The notes beneath the pieces are model-generated. The model had not been told where the DNA came from. It worked only from the letters and a program-made list of their open reading frames with translations, and ran no database searches. This document shows positions 1-6,597 of a DNA stretch of 6,597 nucleotides, one piece after another. Each line of letters begins with the position of its first letter. The stretch's first letter is position 1. The DNA is from a virus (taxonomy: Duplodnaviria; Heunggongvirae; Uroviricota; Caudoviricetes): IMG/VR virus record IMGVR_UViG_3300029071_000005, positions 1 through 6,597 of that record, one strand, 5' to 3'. The position numbers and the translations under genes are program-made.

Positions 1-120
1 CGCCGCGCTCTGGAATTTTCGCCCCGCCGCGCTTATCAGGCTCTTACCAGCAAACGCCCCTTTGTTGGGGTGTCGCCAGTACGTGTTCACGCTGGGCGGA
101 AAAGGCAGGATCAGCTTCAT
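1..120 (-). CDS. rusA: RusA-like Holliday junction resolvase, N-terminal 40 codons only (gene runs off the window start)
   Basis: Minus-strand ATG at 120-118 overlaps the stop of the upstream gene (plus TCAT at 117-120 = ATGA on minus). Translation MKLILPFPPSVNTYWRHPNKGAFAGKSLISAAGRKFQSAA carries the LP-PPS-N-Y-RH N-terminal signature I recall for RusA-family resolvases. Partial, no stop within the window. Confidence 0.6.
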   Translation of the reverse strand, partial: MKLILPFPPSVNTYWRHPNKGAFAGKSLISAAGRKFQSAA

Positions 121-443
121 ACTTTCAGGTCCCTCTCATGTAACCAGTGGGTTGCACGCAGCCTTGCGTTTTCCTCACCGGCAAGCAGTGCGCGGATAAT
201 CCCGACTGCCTCGCTGTCGTCGTCCTTCACCGCGGTATGAAGCGTTATCCCCCGGGCCACACCACGCTTTATCGTGATGACGCCTTTTTTCTCCAGTGCG
301 CGAAGATGCTCCACCGCTGCATTCACTGAACGGTATCCCAGCATGGTTGCCACCTCCTGATTGGTTGGCGGGAAACCACGTTCTTTCTGATAAGAAATCA
401 GCATATCCAGCACCTGCTGCTGGCATTGAGTTAACGTCGTCAT
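117..443 (-). CDS. LexA-like DNA-binding domain protein lacking the S24 peptidase/dimerisation domain (108 aa)
   Basis: Track ORF 117..443. Residues 1-69 align without gaps to the E. coli LexA N-terminal winged-helix domain as I recall it (about half identical), with the recognition-helix segment SVNAAVEHLRALEKKG versus LexA SPNAAEEHLKALARKG. A hinge-like VGIIRALLAGEEN resembles LexA VGRVAAGEPLL, then the protein ends after about 25 more residues. ATGA overlaps at both ends (440-443 and 117-120). Confidence 0.75.
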   Translation of the reverse strand: MTTLTQCQQQVLDMLISYQKERGFPPTNQEVATMLGYRSVNAAVEHLRALEKKGVITIKRGVARGITLHTAVKDDDSEAVGIIRALLAGEENARLRATHWLHERDLKV

Positions 444-1093
444 GCCGCCATCTCCCTGACCAGTTTTTCCGCCTGCTGGCGAACCTGCGCCAGAAACGCC
501 TCACCACATGCCTCAAGTTCATCGCGCCCGATGTAGCTGATTGCCGGTCCCTTCCAGGTCTTATCGAAAACAGCAATAGCACCAGCGAAGAAAGCGCCTG
601 TCGGCACCTGCTTCTCATCCTTCGGGATAAACCAAGCAGGCAGTTCAAAACCAATACGCCCGCGAATAAAAGCAATATGATCCGCATCTTCCGGCCACCA
701 CACTTCGCTGGTGGCAGCTTTGATCAGGAAAACATAGCGCCCACCCTTATCACGCATGGCACTGGCATGTTTCATGATGTAACGCATGCCGGTGATGTAT
801 TGCCCCTCATGCTGACTGGCGCGGCTGTATGGGGGATTACCAAAGGCAGCCCCTTTAAGCTCCGCAAGACGTTCTGACCAGTCATGCGCCAGCGCGTTGT
901 CTTCCGCCGTGTAATACGCAGCACATTTGGCGTTATCACCGTCAGTGAACAGATCCAGAACAAACGGGCCAAACAGGGTGTTAATTCCCCAGAAAATGTT
1001 GTCCGGCGTGCGCCACTGATCACCCACTTCCTTCAGTTCATGGGCTGGTTTGTTCCGCAGTTCCACCAGCTCCTGGCAATATTTATTACTCAT
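440..1093 (-). CDS. Phage Dam-type DNA N6-adenine methyltransferase (orphan, no partner nuclease in window)
   Basis: Track ORF 440..1126. Contains the catalytic NPPY motif (GAAFGNPPYSRA) and the WRTPDNIFW...FVLDLFTDGDN N-terminal region typical of phage Dam-family methyltransferases. Start chosen at ATG 1093-1091 (MSNKY...) because it overlaps the upstream stop TAA 1095-1093 (TAATG); the alternative start at 1126 would give 228 aa. Confidence 0.85.
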   Translation of the reverse strand: MSNKYCQELVELRNKPAHELKEVGDQWRTPDNIFWGINTLFGPFVLDLFTDGDNAKCAAYYTAEDNALAHDWSERLAELKGAAFGNPPYSRASQHEGQYITGMRYIMKHASAMRDKGGRYVFLIKAATSEVWWPEDADHIAFIRGRIGFELPAWFIPKDEKQVPTGAFFAGAIAVFDKTWKGPAISYIGRDELEACGEAFLAQVRQQAEKLVREMAA

Positions 1094-1581
1094 TAAGCCC
1101 CCACGTAATTCCCTGACAGATACCACTCATCACCCGATACAGCGCGCTTGCTGCTTTTCCGTAAACACTGCTCACGACGCGCCAGAAAATTGTTTCGTTC
1201 TGGCTGGGAGTGGCTTTCACGGAATGCCGCCATCCACACCGTTGCAGCACGACGGTATAAGCCCCTGGACTCCAGTTCTTCCGCCTGGCGGGTCAGGCAC
1301 AAAATCACCCGGGGATCGTTAGTGCCGACATAGAAATTGCGCACAGGTCTGGTTTCACGAACTGGTTGTGGTTCCGGCTCCTGCGCTCTCTCAGTCAGGC
1401 GCGGGAAATGTCTGCGTGTATCCCCTTCACAACGGTGAGCCACACGCCCACTCTGACGTAACTTGCTTGCTGACTGCAGAACGCGCTGCCGTGAGTAACC
1501 TGCAAAAGCATCCGCAATGTCTCCGGAAGTACACCCCGGATGGGCTTCAATGAATTTCTGAACTTCATTCAAAAGACTCAT
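1093..1581 (-). CDS. Hypothetical regulator with PerC-like C-terminal motif and a possible N-terminal winged-helix region
   Basis: Track ORF 1093..1587. Motifs AEELESRGLYRRAATVWMAAF and RREQCLRK resemble the conserved core of PerC/Pch-family activators as I recall them. Start placed at ATG 1581-1579, 2 nt after the upstream TGA and 5-6 nt after an AGGGGG Shine-Dalgarno; GTG at 1587 is the alternative. Confidence 0.6.
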   Translation of the reverse strand: MSLLNEVQKFIEAHPGCTSGDIADAFAGYSRQRVLQSASKLRQSGRVAHRCEGDTRRHFPRLTERAQEPEPQPVRETRPVRNFYVGTNDPRVILCLTRQAEELESRGLYRRAATVWMAAFRESHSQPERNNFLARREQCLRKSSKRAVSGDEWYLSGNYVGA

Positions 1582-1583
1582 GA

Positions 1584-2402
1584 TCACCCCCTGAATCCTG
1601 CCGGGATCTGGCTGTAGTCCACGTTGTCGTAACTGGCTTTGAAGTACGGGTCCTCGCGTCTGGCTGCAGATACCGCAGGAACTTCCCAGGATTCTTCGAA
1701 ATGACGATCCGGACCAAAGAACGTGACAGCCTGTTTCACAAATTGTGTGCCGCTGTTACCCATCGCAGATACCCAGCCCGCGTAGCGTTTCACACCTTCC
1801 AGCATGGTTTCGGGTTTTACCCCCTCATTCAAACGGGCTTTCCAGGCTTTGAAGGCTGCAGATTTTGAATTGCCACCAGCACGTTTGGGGTATGCCAGCC
1901 ATGCCTGCTCAAACTCCGGAGAGTATTCCGGTCGGTTTGAACGAACTCGCACAGACTCATCAGCAGATGCACCAACAGCTATTGGTTCATTGACTGGTTC
2001 TTTGACTGGTTCAAAAGAGTGACTGGTTCTGGGTGAATCTCCTGCACCACCCCCTGGTGCAACTCCTGCACTACCTGGTGAATTTGCTGCACCAGATAGT
2101 GAATTATTTGCACTACCCCCTAGTGAATCTCCTGCACCATCAAGATGAAGGAGATAGATATTACTTGAGTTACCTTTTTCACCTTTCCGGGTGACTTTTT
2201 TTACCAGCCCGGAATCACAAAGGGCCGCAATATGATTCATCACAGAACGTTTGCTAATCTCGCACTGGTCAGCAATATGCTGGTAGCTGGGCCAGCACTC
2301 ACCCTGATCGCTGGCATTATCAGCCAGCTTGATCAGAACCAGTTTTCGCAATGGATTACCCACTCGAATTTTCATCGCTTTAACCATCAGCTCCATACTC
2401 AT
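1584..2402 (-). CDS. Phage replication initiator: N-terminal HTH domain, repetitive Gly/Ser/Ala/Pro linker, C-terminal replisome-organiser-like domain
   Basis: Track ORF 1584..2402. N-terminus KIRVGNPLRKLVLIKLADNASDQGECWPSYQHIADQCEISKRSVMNHIAALCDSGLV looks like the HTH module of phage replication initiators. C-terminal PEFEQAWLAYPKRAGGNSKSAAFKAWKARL matches the F-x-x-W-x-x-YPK...A...W motif I associate with phage replisome-organiser/DnaD-like domains. Start ATG 2402-2400 overlaps the upstream stop (ATGA). Confidence 0.8.
   Translation of the reverse strand: MSMELMVKAMKIRVGNPLRKLVLIKLADNASDQGECWPSYQHIADQCEISKRSVMNHIAALCDSGLVKKVTRKGEKGNSSNIYLLHLDGAGDSLGGSANNSLSGAANSPGSAGVAPGGGAGDSPRTSHSFEPVKEPVNEPIAVGASADESVRVRSNRPEYSPEFEQAWLAYPKRAGGNSKSAAFKAWKARLNEGVKPETMLEGVKRYAGWVSAMGNSGTQFVKQAVTFFGPDRHFEESWEVPAVSAARREDPYFKASYDNVDYSQIPAGFRG
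1991..2029. repeat. Three direct copies of TGACTGGTTC inside the replication-initiator gene
   Basis: TGACTGGTTC at 1991-2000, 2003-2012 and 2020-2029, with a degenerate TGGTTC at 1983-1988. Encodes a PVKEPVNEP stretch of the initiator. Confidence 0.6.
2032..2139. repeat. Five 18-bp iteron-like direct repeats (candidate origin of replication embedded in the initiator gene)
   Basis: GGTGAATCTCCTGCACCA 2032-2049, GGTGCAACTCCTGCACTA 2056-2073, GGTGAATTTGCTGCACCA 2077-2094, AGTGAATTATTTGCACTA 2099-2116, AGTGAATCTCCTGCACCA 2122-2139, spaced 21-24 bp apart. An AT-rich stretch follows at about 2140-2200. Same arrangement as lambda ori inside the O gene. Confidence 0.65.
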
Positions 2403-2623
2403 GCTGCACCTCCGAGATGCTTCATGTTTTTTCTGGAGCGAAAGGCTATAAGCGGCATACTGACGCGGTAATTACGGCCCAGCGGTTCACAAACCACCTT
2501 CTGACATTCACGGTCAACCAGGCTAACACGTAGAACATGCCCTGCAGGCGTGGTGTACCACTGACCCGGACGAGGACAACGGAAAGTCTGATTGGTAAAA
2601 CGTTTGAAAATATTCCGGATCAT
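2399..2623 (-). CDS. Hypothetical small protein (74 aa), possibly Cys-containing zinc-ribbon-like
   Basis: Track ORF 2399..2623. ATGA overlaps at both ends (2620-2623 and 2399-2402) link it to Rha and the replication gene. Contains the paired cysteines FRCPRPG...DRECQKVVCE. No family recognised. Confidence 0.5.
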   Translation of the reverse strand: MIRNIFKRFTNQTFRCPRPGQWYTTPAGHVLRVSLVDRECQKVVCEPLGRNYRVSMPLIAFRSRKNMKHLGGAA

Positions 2624-3165
2624 TTGCGCCCCCTTACCTCTGAAGGGTTCAGCGACAAATTTATGAGGCAGGCCAGCGCCGAAGCATCATTAATATAGTC
2701 ATATAAGCTAACAGCCAGCGGAGATTCGGCTTTTGCCAACATAGGATAAAGCTGCTGCAGCCAGACCTGATGAATTGATGAAATGTAGGAACAGAGAACG
2801 CTGGCGTTATGTGCAACGTCGCTCGGTACAGCGGGCCTTGAAAGCTGTTTCTCCATCTGGTTAAAGGCATTGATGTATGCCTCTTTGAACTGGGCAGCAC
2901 GTTTACCCGTGAAACCCATAGCAAGAAACGCAAAGCCGTCGCGGGTTATTTGATAGCAAGGTAGTTTGCGGCCTGTGCAATCGGTGTAATCACTCACCGA
3001 AAAATTGCGGGCAGTGAATGATGCGGAGCATTCAAGCGTGCGGATCTTTTTCAGTACATCGTCATGACGTTTGGAGAAGAAGTTGGCAACAGCCAGGGAT
3101 GAAGTAACAGCCTGACCATCAACGATGGCAATTTCAGGTTGAGTGAGGGTTGGGATCGTAGCCAT
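2620..3165 (-). CDS. Rha-family phage regulatory protein (181 aa as called)
   Basis: C-terminal 181 codons of track ORF 2620..3771. MATIPTLTQPEIAIVDGQAVTSSLAVANFFSKRHDDVLKKIRTLE...GRKLPCYQITRDGFAFLAMGFTGKRAAQFKEAYINAFNQME is a classic Rha N-terminal domain. Start chosen at ATG 3165-3163, preceded by AAAGAGG (GAGG 9 nt upstream). The frame stays open a further 202 codons upstream, so the true start is uncertain. Confidence 0.8.
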   Translation of the reverse strand: MATIPTLTQPEIAIVDGQAVTSSLAVANFFSKRHDDVLKKIRTLECSASFTARNFSVSDYTDCTGRKLPCYQITRDGFAFLAMGFTGKRAAQFKEAYINAFNQMEKQLSRPAVPSDVAHNASVLCSYISSIHQVWLQQLYPMLAKAESPLAVSLYDYINDASALACLINLSLNPSEVRGRK

Positions 3166-3333
3166 GATGGCAGCCTCTTTGGTGATTTTAAATAACTCAC
3201 CACCAAGGCTTTCCACGACCTTATTGGTGGTGAGACGTACAGGGGTGGAAATACCGGTCACCAAAGAACCCGGCCCAACCGAAGTTGGCCCTGCACGCCC
3301 CACCATAATTTGGGCGTAATGCTGCTCATGACA

Positions 3334-3357
3334 CAAAAAAACCGCAAGAGCGCGGTT
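3334..3357 (-). terminator. Candidate intrinsic terminator on the minus strand
   Basis: Minus-strand RNA AACCGC-GCUCUU-GCGGUU followed by UUUUUGUG (plus-strand A7 run at 3335-3341, arms 3340-3345 and 3352-3357). 6-bp stem, 6-nt loop, U-tract. Lies between the 59-aa ORF stop and the Rha start. Confidence 0.45.
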
Positions 3358-3442
3358 GTGCGCTTTGGTGAATTCCGGGTTTCCACGCCCGGCACCCGCT
3401 TTATAAGGTGCCTGAACAGTGTAACGTCCCGGAATGGCAGAA

Positions 3443-3622
3443 TCAATGTGCTGGTGGTCCTTCACACTCAACAAAATCACGCCTGAATTTCCACAAAGGA
3501 CTAAAGCACTCATGCGGGTAGTCTTTGCGAAGATAGATAACGCGCTGTGTTTCTGGCTCCCAACGAATAACATGAACATAAAGTCCTCTTCCGTCACGAA
3601 ACCAGCGGTTAAGTTCCTGCAC
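3443..3622 (-). CDS. Hypothetical 59-aa protein absent from the ORF track (GTG start, just under the 60-aa cutoff)
   Basis: Reading minus strand from GTG 3622-3620 to TGA 3445-3443 gives VQELNRWFRDGRGLYVHVIRWEPETQRVIYLRKDYPHECFSPLWKFRRDFVECEGPPAH, checked codon by codon. G-rich SD-like GGGGGG lies 6 nt upstream. It is out of frame with, and entirely inside, the N-terminal part of the 383-aa track ORF. No family recognised with confidence. Confidence 0.4.
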   Translation of the reverse strand: MQELNRWFRDGRGLYVHVIRWEPETQRVIYLRKDYPHECFSPLWKFRRDFVECEGPPAH

Positions 3623-3652
3623 AACTCGCCCCCCACAGTCAGGTAAAGTTCT

Positions 3653-3668
3653 CTGTGGTTACTTACAG
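3653..3668. promoter_or_regulatory. LexA (SOS) box core match CTGT-N8-ACAG
   Basis: CTGTGGTTACTTACAG at 3653-3668. It is the only exact CTGT-N8-ACAG I found in the window. Lies 31 bp upstream (minus strand) of the 59-aa ORF start, in the gap after the CII-like gene. The spacer is less AT-rich than strong chromosomal SOS boxes. Confidence 0.4.
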
Positions 3669-3767
3669 CCAGGTGATTTGGTAATCTGCATTCATGCCGT
3701 AACAACAGGTGTTCAGCCACGCGGACCACCAACTGTTGCGACCAACGGTTATTTGCCGTTAAACTGT

Positions 3768-4385
3768 TCATGCGTTAGTTTCTCCACAACCAGAAGCAAT
3801 CGACGCCACGACGCCCGGAGCTGCACACTCGCGGGCGTTACTCTTTTCCGGTGCACAAAAAACACGAAATAACAGTGTTAAATGCTCCTGCCACTTCGCC
3901 ATTACTTGGTAGCTGTTCTCTTCGATTTGCTCACGCTCAGCCTGGTCAATAACTCCATCAGCAGTTGCCTTGCGTAAGTACTGGGAATGCTTGCCAATCC
4001 ATTCTATTGACTCCATCAGCCGCTGATTAATGTCACCATTGCCAATGTCATCAATGACCACCAGCGGCACAAACACCCCATTACTACGACGGGCTATTGC
4101 ATCTGTTACATGCCTGGTACCACTGGCATCCTGTAAAACCATGGCCCACTCAAGTGGAAAAATTTGATCCCCACCGCTACGCAGTCTGTTATGCAATTGA
4201 TCTTTTGCTGGGGTGATATCATCAGATTTATACAAACCAAGAATTTCTGCTGCTTCCTCATAGCCATGAGGTAAATCAGCAATCGTTCTTCGTATTGCTG
4301 CCACCAGCCATGCTGGTTGTTTATCAACTTTCCATTCAGGTTCTTTACCCACGGCTATCTCCTTAAAACTGTGGTTACTTTCCAT
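3768..4385 (-). CDS. CII-like / YdaT-like early regulatory protein (205 aa)
   Basis: Track ORF 3768..4385. Second gene after cro-like, the position of cII. AAEILGLYKSDDITPAKDQLHNRLRSGGDQIFPLEWAMVL loosely parallels lambda CII AEAVGVDKSQISRWKRDWIPKFSMLLAVLEWGVV as I recall it. Start ATG 4385 overlaps the last 11 nt of the cro-like gene. Confidence 0.55.
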   Translation of the reverse strand: MESNHSFKEIAVGKEPEWKVDKQPAWLVAAIRRTIADLPHGYEEAAEILGLYKSDDITPAKDQLHNRLRSGGDQIFPLEWAMVLQDASGTRHVTDAIARRSNGVFVPLVVIDDIGNGDINQRLMESIEWIGKHSQYLRKATADGVIDQAEREQIEENSYQVMAKWQEHLTLLFRVFCAPEKSNARECAAPGVVASIASGCGETNA

Positions 4386-4623
4386 CTGATAAGTCTTTAA
4401 TCTTTTGAAAAATATCTGGACGTAATTTTTCTTTTGATACGCCAGTGGTCATTTCAATAAATATCGAGAGCTTTGCAGGGGGACGCTTTTCTCTGTTCAA
4501 CCAGTTCCAGACATGTTGTTGCTTTACTAAACGACCACTGCTGGCTGTGAGCTTCCGAGCCAATTCTGATTGACCACCAGCCAGAGCGATTGCCTCTGAT
4601 AAGGCTAATTGCTCAGGTGTCAT
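4375..4623 (-). CDS. Cro-like / YdaS-like HTH transcriptional regulator (82 aa)
   Basis: Track ORF 4375..4623. HTH segment GGQSELARKLTASSGRLVKQQHVWNWL. Transcribed divergently from the repressor; GGAG lies 6 nt upstream of the ATG; a TATAAT -10 lies upstream on the minus strand. Confidence 0.8.
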   Translation of the reverse strand: MTPEQLALSEAIALAGGQSELARKLTASSGRLVKQQHVWNWLNREKRPPAKLSIFIEMTTGVSKEKLRPDIFQKIKDLSDGK

Positions 4624-4647
4624 AGCTTTCTCCTATCTGTAAGTAGT

Positions 4648-4731
4648 AAAGTTGTTGATAACTTCGATTATACAACCACAACAACTTTTATCACAACTTT
4701 TAGATGTTGGAAAGCTAAAACATAAAGTTGT
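4648..4731. promoter_or_regulatory. OR-like operator region: four copies of the 8-9 bp motif AAAGTTGT/ACAACTTT, including an imperfect 16-bp palindrome
   Basis: AAAGTTGT at 4648-4655 and 4724-4731; ACAACTTTT at 4681-4689 and 4693-4701; palindrome AAGTTgttgatAACTT at 4649-4664. Sits between the divergent repressor and cro-like genes. Confidence 0.65.
4667..4696 (-). promoter_or_regulatory. Candidate pR-like sigma70 promoter for the cro-like operon
   Basis: On the minus strand: -35 TTGTGA (plus 4691-4696), 18-bp spacer, -10 TATAAT (plus 4667-4672), about 40 nt upstream of the cro-like ATG. Overlaps the operator repeats. Confidence 0.55.
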
Positions 4732-4760
4732 AACCTCAATAAAAACGAGGGGGATATGTT

Positions 4761-5447
4761 GTGAAAACATTGGCAGAAAGACTAAAAAGCGAAAGAGAAA
4801 AAGCAGGAATGAGTCAGGCGCAACTAGCTGAAAAAATTGGGCTTTCACAACAATCCGTAGCGAAAATCGAGAATGGAGAAACTCAACAGCCTCGGAAAAT
4901 TAAAGAGATTGCTAAAGTGTTAGGGGTTTCTCAAAAGTGGTTGCAATTGGGCATTGAGGATAACGCGTCTTTCCCAGACCTTGTTGTAAAGGAGGCTGAA
5001 AGTACAGCATTAGATCCTGACATTTTTGCAAACATTCCAGTCCTAGATGTCGAGTTATCAGCGGGTAATGGATGTTTGGCTGAAATAGTTGAATCAACTG
5101 TAGACTGGTTCCCGCTAAGAAGGATTGATTTAAGAAAAGCTGGTGTATGTGTCTCCAATGCAAAGATCGTAAAAATTTGGGGCAATAGTTTACTACCTGT
5201 ACTTAACAATGGAGATTTTGTTGCTGTTGATGTTTCCCAAACGGTTCCTATTCGTGATGGGGATCTTTATGCCATACGTGATGGCGTATTACTTAGAGTT
5301 AAAATATTGATCAATTTACCTGACGGTGGTCTGATTCTAAGAAGTTTCAATAAAGATGAGTATCCAGATGAAATACTCACCTTCGAAGATAGGCGTTCCA
5401 GAATTCACGTTATAGGTAGAGTATTCTGGTCATCGCGCACTTGGTAA
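4761..5447 (+). CDS. CI-like prophage repressor: N-terminal XRE-type HTH plus C-terminal S24 (LexA-like) autopeptidase domain
   Basis: Track ORF 4761..5447, GTG start 10 nt after GAGGGGG. HTH is MSQAQLAEKIGLSQQSVAKIENG. S24 signatures: candidate Ala-Gly cleavage site in LSAGNG, Ser motif WGNSLLPVLNNGDFVAVD (compare LexA GMSM...GDLLAV), Lys motif LLRVKIL (compare LexA VTVKRLK). Confidence 0.85.
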   Translation: MKTLAERLKSEREKAGMSQAQLAEKIGLSQQSVAKIENGETQQPRKIKEIAKVLGVSQKWLQLGIEDNASFPDLVVKEAESTALDPDIFANIPVLDVELSAGNGCLAEIVESTVDWFPLRRIDLRKAGVCVSNAKIVKIWGNSLLPVLNNGDFVAVDVSQTVPIRDGDLYAIRDGVLLRVKILINLPDGGLILRSFNKDEYPDEILTFEDRRSRIHVIGRVFWSSRTW

Positions 5448-5474
5448 TGCATCAAAAAACCTTCCTTCAGAAAT

Positions 5475-5579
5475 TTAGTTACCATTATTACCCGCCTTTT
5501 CAATCTTCCTCCCGTGATTTGAGAGTTTCCAATCACGGAAGGAAAGTGTCCCTTGTGTAATTAAAAGCGCATCGTCCAT
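5475..5579 (-). CDS. Candidate 34-aa small ORF antisense downstream of the repressor
   Basis: ATG 5579-5577 preceded by a perfect AGGAGG (plus CCTCCT 5585-5590) at 5-nt spacing. Translation MDDALLITQGTLSFRDWKLSNHGRKIEKAGNNGN, stop TAA 5477-5475. It is the C-terminal part of track ORF 5475..5663, whose upstream start would lie inside the operator-like block. Confidence 0.3.
   Translation of the reverse strand: MDDALLITQGTLSFRDWKLSNHGRKIEKAGNNGN
5504..5546 (+). other. Stable hairpin about 57 nt after the repressor stop (possible repressor 3' end structure; no U-tract)
   Basis: Inverted repeat TCTTCCTCCCGTGATT (5504-5519) and AATCACGGAAGGAAAG (5531-5546), about 13 bp with one mismatch and an 11-nt loop. 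Not followed by a T-run on the plus strand, so not a classic intrinsic terminator. Confidence 0.3.
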
Positions 5580-5640
5580 ACAACCTCCTTTTTTGATAAC
5601 CCTTGCCCTCATTTCACATCCGTCAAAACCACATAAAGTT

Positions 5641-5690
5641 GTTGACAACAACCAAAACAACAACTAGATTACAACTTAAAGATGTTGCAG
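5641..5690. promoter_or_regulatory. OL-like operator block homologous to the OR-like region
   Basis: CATAAAGTTGT at 5641-5651 is identical to 4721-4731. TAAAGTTGTTGAcAAC resembles 4647-4663 (TAAAGTTGTTGAtAAC). ACAACT-type half-sites recur at 5667-5672 and 5680-5685. About 55-60 bp of shared sequence with indels relative to 4645-4710. Confidence 0.6.
5651..5679 (+). promoter_or_regulatory. Candidate pL-like sigma70 promoter, plus strand
   Basis: -35 TTGACA (5651-5656, perfect), 17-bp spacer, -10 TAGATT (5674-5679), embedded in the operator-like repeats. Would transcribe towards boxA and the ORF at 5830. Confidence 0.55.
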
Positions 5691-5761
5691 TAACGAACAG
5701 GTAGGACGCCCACGAAGTAGCCGCCCGGGGCATATGAAGTCCAGGATGATTCGTTAGCAAC

Positions 5762-5784
5762 AAAAAAGCGCCCTACAGGACGCT
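5762..5784 (-). terminator. Candidate intrinsic terminator on the minus strand
   Basis: Minus-strand RNA AGCGUCC-UGUA-GGGCGCU (7-bp stem with one G-U pair, tetraloop) followed by UUUUUU (plus-strand A6 at 5762-5767). The same sequence folds less well on the plus strand (C-A mismatch). Confidence 0.45.
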
Positions 5785-5786
5785 TA

Positions 5787-5798
5787 GCTCTTTAACAA
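5787..5798 (+). promoter_or_regulatory. boxA-like antitermination element
   Basis: GCTCTTTAACAA at 5787-5798 matches the rrn/lambdoid boxA consensus (TGCTCTTTAACAA) at 12 of 13 positions. About 100 nt downstream of the candidate pL-like start and 32 nt upstream of the ATG at 5830. No clean boxB-type hairpin seen 3' of it. Confidence 0.5.
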
Positions 5799-5829
5799 TC
5801 TTGGTATCCCCGTAACAAAAGAGGGTTCT

Positions 5830-6123
5830 ATGGTCATATTCTGTGCTTACGTTCATCCTAATGGATTTTTTATCAGTACCAACCAACAAGACGAATTCTG
5901 GATTCTACTTAGTAAGCAGGTCGGATGGGGACGATTCTGTCTAATCCGACCAGAATCAGAATTTACAGAGAATGGAGGGCTTTTTGAATTACGTGAAATA
6001 CGTCCGGCAGATGGTCAAGCCCCTGACCAAGTAATCGAATCGTCAGCTGTTTTATGGCGTCGGCAGGAAGCGTTCGAAGCTGAGAGAGTAATTTCTTCTT
6101 ATCTTCAGTCGTGGCAGAAGTAG
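5830..6123 (+). CDS. Hypothetical protein (97 aa) in the position of a first pL-operon gene; function unknown
   Basis: Track ORF 5830..6123. Good RBS (AGAGGG, 4 nt before the ATG). Downstream of the plus-strand promoter and boxA. No arginine-rich N-terminus like lambda N. Its 3' 160 bp overlaps the convergent minus-strand ORF 5963..6466, so one of the two calls may be wrong. Confidence 0.35.
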   Translation: MVIFCAYVHPNGFFISTNQQDEFWILLSKQVGWGRFCLIRPESEFTENGGLFELREIRPADGQAPDQVIESSAVLWRRQEAFEAERVISSYLQSWQK

Positions 6124-6466
6124 AACTATTGATGATACGTTCAAGTTCACAGAGAGTCTCATCATGCAATCTTATTGTCATAATCCCAAGAATAGCTTTA
6201 AGACCTCCATCATCACGAATGAAATCAATTCCATCTTTAGTAATTCTTAATTCAGGAATATTTATATTTATGCCATCCAAGTAATAATCAAGAGCATTCT
6301 TAATCAAGCCATGTTCTTCGAGATAAATTAAGTTCGAAATTAGGACATTATCATCTCCAAATGCGTCACGAACAGACTGCAACGCATCATCAGAAATTTC
6401 ATAAGGATGAGCATCATACAGTATTTGTAACAACTGCCTTTGTGCACTTCTATCAAATTTGTCCAT
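5963..6466 (-). CDS. Hypothetical protein (167 aa) encoded mostly in a visibly AT-rich segment
   Basis: Track ORF 5963..6466. 114 stop-free codons in AT-rich DNA (about 6124-6466) are unlikely by chance. Sequence is protein-like, with a possible winged-helix segment (LISNLIYLEEHGLIK). GGTGA lies 9 nt upstream of the ATG. No family recognised. Confidence 0.6.
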   Translation of the reverse strand: MDKFDRSAQRQLLQILYDAHPYEISDDALQSVRDAFGDDNVLISNLIYLEEHGLIKNALDYYLDGININIPELRITKDGIDFIRDDGGLKAILGIMTIRLHDETLCELERIINSSTSATTEDKKKLLSQLRTLPADAIKQLTIRLLGQGLDHLPDVFHVIQKALHSL

Positions 6467-6597
6467 CTTAAATAATCACCATGTTATTGGGGGTATCAAG
6501 ATTAACCGAATCCTTGTTGTTGGGGAATAACCAGGTCCACCTCGCCTGATGTGGCTAAAAGCAGGCACATAACAGCTAAGTATTTTCAACCAGAGAG

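Follow-up and report, generated by a model that had tools for sequence, protein, structure and literature searches.

A phage LexA DNA-binding domain with a conserved two-helix tail and its possible role as a RecA-insensitive LexA surrogate

Described LexA heads and the mini-LexA gene

Stand-alone LexA DNA-binding heads are a known kind of phage protein, since they are annotated in databases and common in phage proteomes, and the kind has one characterised member. This protein, gp6 of GIL01/Bam35 (Tectiviridae) of Bacillus thuringiensis, is a truncated LexA homologue, and the phage that encodes it has its switch tied to host LexA. The site that gp6 binds is not an SOS site and overlaps the -35 element; from there gp6 activates the late promoter P3 (PMC6182141). 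Here we describe a LexA head from a tailed phage (Caudoviricetes), encoded in a stretch of 6,597 nucleotides (IMG/VR record IMGVR_UViG_3300029071_000005, positions 1 to 6,597; hereafter, the window). An open reading frame (ORF) at 117-443 on the minus strand, with an ATG start and a TGA stop, encodes a 108-aa product that we call mini-LexA and that, like gp6, has no catalytic domain. The winged-helix domain of the product derives from LexA and is nearest to the LexA of enterobacteria. The best single reading of the product is that of a non-cleavable LexA mimic, and sequence comparisons lead us to propose, as possible rather than probable, that it may act as a RecA-proof surrogate of LexA. Dimeric LexA heads immune to activated RecA (RecA*) exist as laboratory constructs, either as LexA (Ind-) alleles that resist cleavage or as LexA heads joined to a dimerisation module from another protein. 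Those are mutant or engineered host proteins, whereas mini-LexA is a natural phage gene with putative dimerisation and specificity; the mechanism proposed below would make it their natural counterpart.

Mini-LexA shares fold and register with the N-terminal domain of E. coli LexA (residues 1-84, the fragment left by RecA*-stimulated self-cleavage). The Pfam family LexA_DNA_bind (PF01726) matches residues 1-65 over its whole length (model 1-65 of 65; E 2.9e-19, 69 bits against a cut-off of 23.7), and the best sequence match in the PDB (phmmer) is the E. coli LexA DNA-binding domain, with residues 2-70 on 2-70 at E 6e-16. An earlier reading of this DNA, made from the sequence alone, had described a gap-free alignment to the N-terminal ~70 residues of LexA with a near-identical recognition helix, and both hold: the helix has NAAVEHLRAL where E. 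coli LexA has NAAEEHLKAL, and the two proteins have in common the motif S-x-N-A-A-x-E-H-L, the wing R-G-I and, beyond it, a flexible linker. In an AlphaFold2 (AF2) model with a mean predicted local distance difference test (pLDDT) score of 79.7, residues 1-68 adopt the LexA topology (helices 6-22, 28-35 and 40-52; strands 56-58 and 66-68). Foldseek places the model on DNA-bound LexA 3JSO with a root-mean-square deviation (rmsd) of 1.1 Å over 67 columns at 51% identity; across 3jso and 1lea the rmsd is 1.1-1.3 Å, and only the first ~70 residues are superposed.

Beyond the head the two proteins part. Mini-LexA is phage-encoded, within a lytic operon; it carries valine in place of E44, lacks the S24 peptidase/dimerisation domain and has an extra 34-residue two-helix tail. 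Pfam gives no match to Peptidase_S24 (with its Ser119/Lys156 dyad) in mini-LexA, although the cI protein of the window matches, and the protein ends at residue 108; the LexA_DNA_bind-only architecture and the absence of a Ser/Lys catalytic domain, as first read from the sequence, are thus borne out. The NCBIfam lexA equivalog TIGR00498 scores 70.6 bits, under its cut-off of 110.95, and matches over model positions 1-91 of 203 only. PHROG 362, by contrast, covers the protein end to end, two-helix tail included (residues 1-108 against profile 1-106 of 106, E 3.8e-59); its label is the generic one of transcriptional repressor. PADLOC returned no defence-system match for mini-LexA.

Against gp6 the likeness is one of design. 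The Bacillus phage protein has 66 aa, no tail, a Bacillus-type LexA origin and K38 as a key helix residue, and mini-LexA differs in each of these. BLASTP gives no alignment between them, and because of this we regard the two as independent captures of a LexA head. A search of BFVD shows that phages commonly encode stand-alone LexA heads of 65-150 aa, none of them under a characterised name. What sets the enterobacterial family apart is its origin, its tail, its constant position before rusA and its occurrence inside operons headed by SOS boxes. Full-text literature searches found no experimental study of a mini-LexA of the PHROG 362 type. The sequence-only statement that no function is known for such a protein therefore stands for the enterobacterial family, but it overlooked the precedent of gp6.

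The gene is widespread and intact. It occurs at 95-100% nucleotide identity in mEp460, SfV, SfII, SfIV, phage cdtI and Stx2c- and Stx2a-converting phages, where deposited annotations variously call it 'LexA DNA binding domain protein', 'LexA-like protein', 'transcriptional repressor' or 'hypothetical', and 2233 of the 5426 complete E. coli genomes (~41%) carry it, with up to four copies each. Eighty-one full-length copies represent 42 nucleotide haplotypes and 13 proteins, and none has an internal stop. Mini-LexA is under purifying selection: across the 42 haplotypes, the ratio of nonsynonymous to synonymous polymorphism (pN/pS) is 0.087 for the whole gene, 0.017 for the DNA-binding domain and 0.21 for the tail. 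The view that this is not a stray fragment thus gains the support of a full-length family profile, strong constraint and presence in two-fifths of complete E. coli genomes.

The sequence-only reading had the protein pass through a LexA-like hinge and then stop. The likeness in sequence is there, but residues 75-108 are a conserved two-helix module rather than a bare end, with predicted helices at 75-87 and 93-102 (pLDDT 85-87). An exhaustive profile search of 1.84 billion representatives yielded 11,301 LexA-head proteins, a small subset of which matches mini-LexA through the tail at 33-49% identity; there the tail follows the pattern 'R.LL....AR.RA...L...G', or roughly EAV..IRALL, a turn, and AR.RA...L...G. 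A97 and L101 are invariant across the family alignment. The tail has no Pfam match, a tail-only profile found nothing significant in the PDB, and Foldseek matches are confined to the winged helix-turn-helix (wHTH) part. Mini-LexA does lack the LexA C-terminal dimerisation domain, as had been said, but on the predicted structure the tail is a candidate replacement for the missing function. Three proteins of 160-220 aa (P0127, P0135 and P0138) carry two tandem LexA DNA-binding domains without an S24 domain and look like single-chain pseudo-dimers of the LexA head; duplication of the head within one chain suggests that stand-alone LexA heads still need two heads.

The tail also bears on the apparent cleavage site. 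Mini-LexA 'LLAGEE' lies opposite LexA 'VAAGEP', with A88-G89 aligned to A84-G85, and the likeness is genuine in the subfamily of the window. More broadly, AGE aligns with LexA A84-G85-E86, and a proline of distant relatives (type B, below) with LexA P87; because of these alignments the tail probably descends from the LexA linker and cleavage region. Among close relatives, however, the dipeptide and its flank vary (LLANEEN, LLVGEEN and LLAGKEN; G to N, A to V and E to K), and distant ones do not have it (VERES, TRKEN, SGGD, AEEP, DDQP, ADTP). On this non-conservation we reject the Ala-Gly hinge as a working cleavage site, and because of it the likeness looks vestigial. With neither a catalytic domain nor a conserved scissile bond, cleavage is not a function of the family.

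DNA recognition, SOS boxes and operon settings

In E. coli LexA, residues S39, N41, A42, E44 and E45 contact DNA (PMC3091678). Mini-LexA retains all of these except E44, which is replaced by V. Across the family alignments S39 is invariant and N41 nearly so. Because S39, N41, A42 and E45 are kept, a CTGT-type half-site is likely for the mini-LexA of the window, and in some relatives the specificity may have drifted. We scanned for SOS boxes with a position weight matrix (PWM) built from 19 E. coli boxes, which themselves score 12.9-27.2.

A CTGT-N8-ACAG box at 3653-3668 had been put forward as a possible phage target. The exact box exists, but the interval 3651-3670 scores 7.6, below all 19 reference boxes and at a level that chance alone would produce ~0.8 times in 6.6 kb. 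It lies within the Ash/Rha ORF and is kept in mEp460 as coding sequence. With one mismatch allowed, the window holds three CTGT-N8-ACAG sites against 2.4 expected. We therefore reject 3653-3668 as a target, as a chance-level match. Elsewhere CTGT-Nk-ACAG is enriched at k = 8 only (5 against 0.5 expected in mEp460; 3 against 0.05 expected in locus L008), and no other spacing of the half-site, from 0 to 16, inverted or everted, was consistently enriched. Boxes scoring at least 16 number 69 in 1.03 Mb of phage loci, against ~2 per Mb in random sequence, although the loci are related and the count is not independent. Phage boxes include TACTGTATGTAAAAACAGTA and CACTGTTTATTTTTACAGTA, with TACTGTTTATATATACAGTG in L008.

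Divergent loci, numbered with the prefix L, were gathered by exact-protein look-ups; an alignment query of IMG/VR gave only copies that are 98-100% identical. Both collections place the gene in a nin-like slot, between the replication genes and Q and directly before rusA, in the window, in mEp460, in all 80 IMG/VR loci and in L003, L006, L007, L008, L092, L097 and L099. Two settings can be distinguished. In the first (type A: the window, mEp460, L003, L006, L092/93 and L099), the gene is part of an early-right operon in phages with an S24-domain cI, and the replication genes come first, followed in some of these phages by PerC and in some by a methyltransferase (Dam, C5, or a C5+D12 fusion), then by mini-LexA, rusA, sometimes KilA-N, DUF968 and Q. 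Strong SOS boxes of type A phages are also found at the dinI promoter.

The window itself has the order cro-like, cII-like, Ash/Rha, O-like, PerC, Dam, mini-LexA, rusA. The sequence-only reading had coupled mini-LexA to Dam and rusA through ATGA overlaps, and both are present, with the Dam stop on the mini-LexA start at 440-443 and the mini-LexA stop on the rusA start at 117-120; a GGAG lies 8 nt 5' of the ATG. As for the placement between a dam gene and rusA, rusA follows with the same overlap in 80/80 IMG/VR loci, but Dam is optional as the 5' neighbour (64/80), with PerC/YfdN in that position in 15/80.

The second setting (type B: L007, L008, L091 and L097) is that of an SOS-headed operon. 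Here the proteins are 38-41% identical to the mini-LexA of the window, also match PHROG 362, and belong to operons that begin with a promoter bearing one or two perfect SOS boxes (PWM 20-27). A terminator-like hairpin precedes this promoter in L007 and L008, and in L091 the -10 element TATACT overlaps the box. Next come DinI (L091), RecA_C (L097) or neither, then an ORF with a GTG start, mini-LexA, a 66-67-aa ORF (PHROG 1212), RusA, DUF968 and Q, except that RusA is absent in L091 and the L097 contig ends before any Q gene. The RecA_C gene of L097 (4242-4597) encodes a 95-aa protein made up of a RecA C-terminal domain alone (PF21096, E 9e-10) and sits under two SOS boxes in tandem: TACTGTATAAAAATACAGTT, scoring 26.2, and an overlapping second box scoring 17.6. 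L007 and L097 phages have YdaT-type early genes, and the L007 repressor is short and without an S24 domain.

The type B architecture is that of the Gifsy induction operon. Lemire et al. found the Gifsy induction trigger to be LexA-controlled, in the order terminator, SOS box, dinI, a small GUG-start antirepressor and 'irsA' (PMC3121763). The GTG-start ORFs of type B encode 75-82 aa (L007 4713-4961, L008 4724-4951, L091 797-1024, L097 4722-4955) and follow the SOS box or dinI; the three of these ORFs that were scanned all match PHROG 1813. Their position and start codon liken them to Gifsy GftA/GfoA, and they are probable antirepressors, although the L091 ORF has no BLASTP similarity to the Gifsy-2 protein. 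Mini-LexA itself is not the Gifsy irsA homologue: STM1020, which fills the equivalent slot of Gifsy-2, belongs to DUF1367 ('irsA homologue') rather than to the LexA heads and shows no relationship by BLASTP. The window in turn departs from the Gifsy type, as by PWM no SOS box heads its mini-LexA operon and the gene lies inside the P_R operon.

Phage modulators of the RecA-LexA axis occur near the gene, with DinI and a probable antirepressor in the operons of mini-LexA relatives. DinI homologues, GIL01 gp7 and GfoA/GftA share with mini-LexA this theme of phage manipulation, but they act by protein-protein contact (on RecA, LexA or phage repressors), whereas mini-LexA is a sequence-specific DNA-binding domain.

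Three further placements of strong SOS boxes were seen in these phages. A perfect box, TACTGTATGTAAAAACAGTA (25.8), lies inside the S24-type cI ORF between its helix-turn-helix and peptidase parts in 21/80 IMG/VR loci (mEp460, L009, 31970-31989; L010 24763-24782), where it could be an internal promoter or a roadblock. Another, TACTGTATTTATGAACAGTG (L043 8765-8784), is in the 150-bp gap between rusA and KilA-N in 8/80 loci and suggests that the KilA-N/antirepressor-like gene beside the mini-LexA-rusA pair is SOS-controlled. At or just 5' of a methyltransferase gene between Q and the lysis genes, a canonical box recurs in 20/80 IMG/VR loci, ~+4.2 kb from the mini-LexA start (examples are L009 41021-41040 and L008 7739-7758).

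A LexA surrogate weighed against other functions

Under the surrogate reading, two copies of mini-LexA would pair through the helical tail, giving a dimer of flexibly tethered LexA heads, which is LexA's own design. Such a dimer would occupy SOS boxes (CTGT-N8-ACAG) in both the host chromosome and phage DNA and, because RecA* cannot trigger its cleavage, would restore repression at SOS promoters once host LexA has been destroyed. Re-repression would cut the SOS response short, switch the phage's own SOS-triggered genes off again after a pulse of expression, and hold down the SOS-controlled antirepressors of rival prophages, along with other SOS-induced host functions, while the phage replicates; the likely benefit would be to silence SOS functions that harm phage yield. 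In type B phages the gene would form a negative feedback loop, as with host lexA, but one that RecA* could not override.

Gene order fits this scheme, in that mini-LexA would be co-transcribed with lytic-phase genes, from the P_R early-right operon in the window and from a Gifsy-type SOS-box promoter in divergent relatives. So does LexA biochemistry: the isolated N-terminal fragment retains weak operator binding, and attaching a foreign dimerisation module to a LexA head yields a repressor of SOS operators, which makes the surrogate design plausible. Further, indirect support comes from the four of five DNA contacts retained and from the relatives in SOS-box-headed operons with DinI or RecA_C genes. 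The superposition on DNA-bound LexA, the very strong constraint on the head, the conserved helical tail and the enrichment of CTGT-Nk-ACAG at k = 8 alone also speak for the surrogate.

Were SOS boxes re-repressed in this way, the phage itself would actively shut off SOS as part of prophage induction in E. coli. This would bear on the duration of SOS mutagenesis and filamentation in induced cells, on the outcome of competition between co-resident prophages that are triggered at the same time and, because the gene is in Stx2a and Stx2c phages, on Shiga-toxin phage biology. The fuller joint reading is more doubtful. According to it, many E. coli prophages, those of the Stx2a and Stx2c phages among them, would carry a RecA-proof LexA, made only after the lytic programme has begun, that shuts off SOS even while DNA damage persists and blocks SOS-dependent induction of rival prophages, sometimes together with DinI or RecA_C and an antirepressor; such a protein would be a natural 'lexA(Ind-)' serving phage-phage hierarchy and host takeover, which, as part of the same joint reading, we likewise hold to be unlikely.

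Several observations weigh against a surrogate of LexA. E44 is never retained in the family, and E45 is replaced (by L, I, T, G or D) in five of 14 members, a variability not expected of a family in which every member has to recognise the unchanging host box. By PWM scan no box in the window reaches a score of 12, the best being 11.4 at 5859-5878, and L003, L006 and L099 have no strong SOS box within ~6 kb. The boxes of type B are fully explained by host LexA, so their SOS context is guilt by association, and Gifsy-2 has the same box and operon with DUF1367 and no mini-LexA in the slot. The hydrophobic moment of the tail helices does not differ from that of shuffled sequences. Finally, gp6 counts against the reading because the sole characterised truncated LexA homologue reads a different site and activates (PMC6182141).

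The same precedent favours a second explanation, which we consider unlikely though a serious contender: that mini-LexA is a phage-specific transcription factor, repressor or activator, with an operator of its own, its LexA head retuned to control of the nin region, Q or late genes in the way that gp6 works at its non-SOS site over a -35 element, and its tail serving dimerisation or contact with RNA polymerase. Variation at recognition-helix positions 42-45, with E44 always lost, agrees with this, as do the gene's constant place just before rusA, DUF968 and Q and the purely generic transcriptional-repressor label of its PHROG. No candidate operator emerged, however; no spacing of inverted CTGT repeats besides 8 shows consistent enrichment, and the site at 3653-3668 is at chance level. 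The gene is also found in combination with a variety of immunity, replication and late modules, and this speaks against a fixed target in cis close by; S39 and N41 are kept as in LexA; and gp6, whose helix reads SHKTAHRYL against SVNAAVEHL, shows no BLASTP similarity. If it were true, this explanation would extend the single known case from Gram-positive tectiviruses to lambdoid phages.

The company of the gene suggests a third possibility, that of a DNA-binding accessory of recombination, replication or methylation, which would load or direct RusA or control the methyltransferase, like small proteins of the lambda nin region. Coupling to rusA by ATGA is universal among the 80 viral loci, RusA adjoins the gene in nine of 11 divergent settings, and a methyltransferase (Dam, C5 or C5+D12 fusion) lies directly 5' in the window, L006, L008, L092/93 and L099. 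RusA is not beside the gene in L091 and L094, however, and the methyltransferase is missing in L003, L007, L091 and L097. The nin region is moreover a mosaic of unrelated accessory genes, so adjacency to RusA or a methyltransferase is weak evidence, and beyond a sequence-specific wHTH nothing hints at junction or enzyme binding. We regard such an accessory role as quite improbable.

Very improbable, too, is a decoy acting at the protein level, in which the LexA-linker-derived tail would bind host LexA, RecA* or ClpXP and alter LexA cleavage or turnover, with DNA binding secondary. The alignment of the tail to the LexA cleavage region (A88-G89 with A84-G85, type B proline with P87) and the presence of RecA-directed modulators, DinI and the RecA_C mini-protein, in the same operon speak for it. 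The Ala-Gly and its flanks are not conserved, though, the region is predicted to be helical rather than an extended strand-loop, and it is the DNA-binding domain that is most constrained, at a pN/pS of 0.017 against 0.21 in the tail. The idea of a functionless, decaying remnant of a full-length LexA or cI-type repressor gene, which the sequence-only reading had itself raised and to which the truncated-LexA architecture and the partial NCBIfam lexA match lend some colour, is already refuted by conservation and integrity: the match to the 106-aa family profile is full-length, the tail is kept down to 33% identity, the ORF is intact in 81/81 copies of a gene found in 2233 E. coli genomes, and rusA starts inside the stop codon, with no S24-like sequence 3'.

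Features of the window

Coordinates of mini-LexA, its parts and its neighbours are collected in Table 1. The transcript of mini-LexA would come from the P_R-like promoter, since this is the sole promoter-like site on that strand upstream of the gene. The Dam start at 1093 follows the mEp460 annotation (mEp460_045, 654 bp) and the PADLOC model; the ORF finder reaches 1126.

Table 1. Coordinates of mini-LexA, its parts and other features in the window
Feature	Position	Strand	Basis and remarks
Mini-LexA gene, PHROG 362 member	117-443	-	Stop codon 117-119; ORF list, PF01726, PHROG 362
LexA-type wHTH domain, codons 1-68	240-443	-	AF2, Foldseek, pN/pS 0.017
Recognition helix SVNAAVEHLRALEK, codons 39-52	288-329	-	Alignment to LexA, family alignments
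Acidic linker HTAVKD, codons 69-74	222-239	-	pLDDT <50 at 71-74; indels of the family alignment fall here
Two-helix tail DDSEAVGIIRALLAGEENARLRATHWLHERDLKV, codons 75-108, candidate dimerisation module	120-221	-	AF2, family alignment, pN/pS 0.21
Ala-Gly, codons 88-89, on the LexA Ala84-Gly85 bond	177-182	-	MAFFT and HMMER alignments; judged vestigial
rusA 5' part, Holliday-junction resolvase, runs off the window	1-120	-	MKLILPFPPSVNTYWRH...; RusA annotation in mEp460 and E. coli genomes
Dam-type N6-adenine methyltransferase	440-1093	-	PF05869 E 1.1e-45; PADLOC MTase_II from residue 12
PerC/YfdN-like regulator, 5' of Dam in the operon	1093-1587	-	Pfam PerC E 1e-9; PHROG 1324
CTGT-N8-ACAG candidate box CTGTGGTTACTTACAG	3653-3668		One exact match; unsupported as a target
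P_R-like sigma-70 promoter TTGTGA-18-TATAAT, 5' of the cro-like gene	4667-4696	-	Promoter scan

No complete E. coli genome or phage record among those searched covers more than 80% of the window. Its immunity region (4400-6597) and its left-hand replication and nin genes form a mosaic that is absent as such from the searched collections. Within the early operon, a 383-aa Ash+Rha ORF (2620-3771, minus strand) is coupled to the cII-like gene by ATGA; PHROG 821 matches its residues 61-383 only, and a terminator-like hairpin lies inside it at 3357-3340 (minus strand). Next to cI, a 167-aa ORF (5963-6466, minus strand; PHROG 3983) is overlapped by a 97-aa ORF on the plus strand, and neither has a Pfam or PADLOC match. 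A strong terminator at 5785-5766 (minus strand) follows these ORFs, and the region as a whole, 5766-6466, is the usual slot for accessory or exclusion genes expressed in the lysogen.

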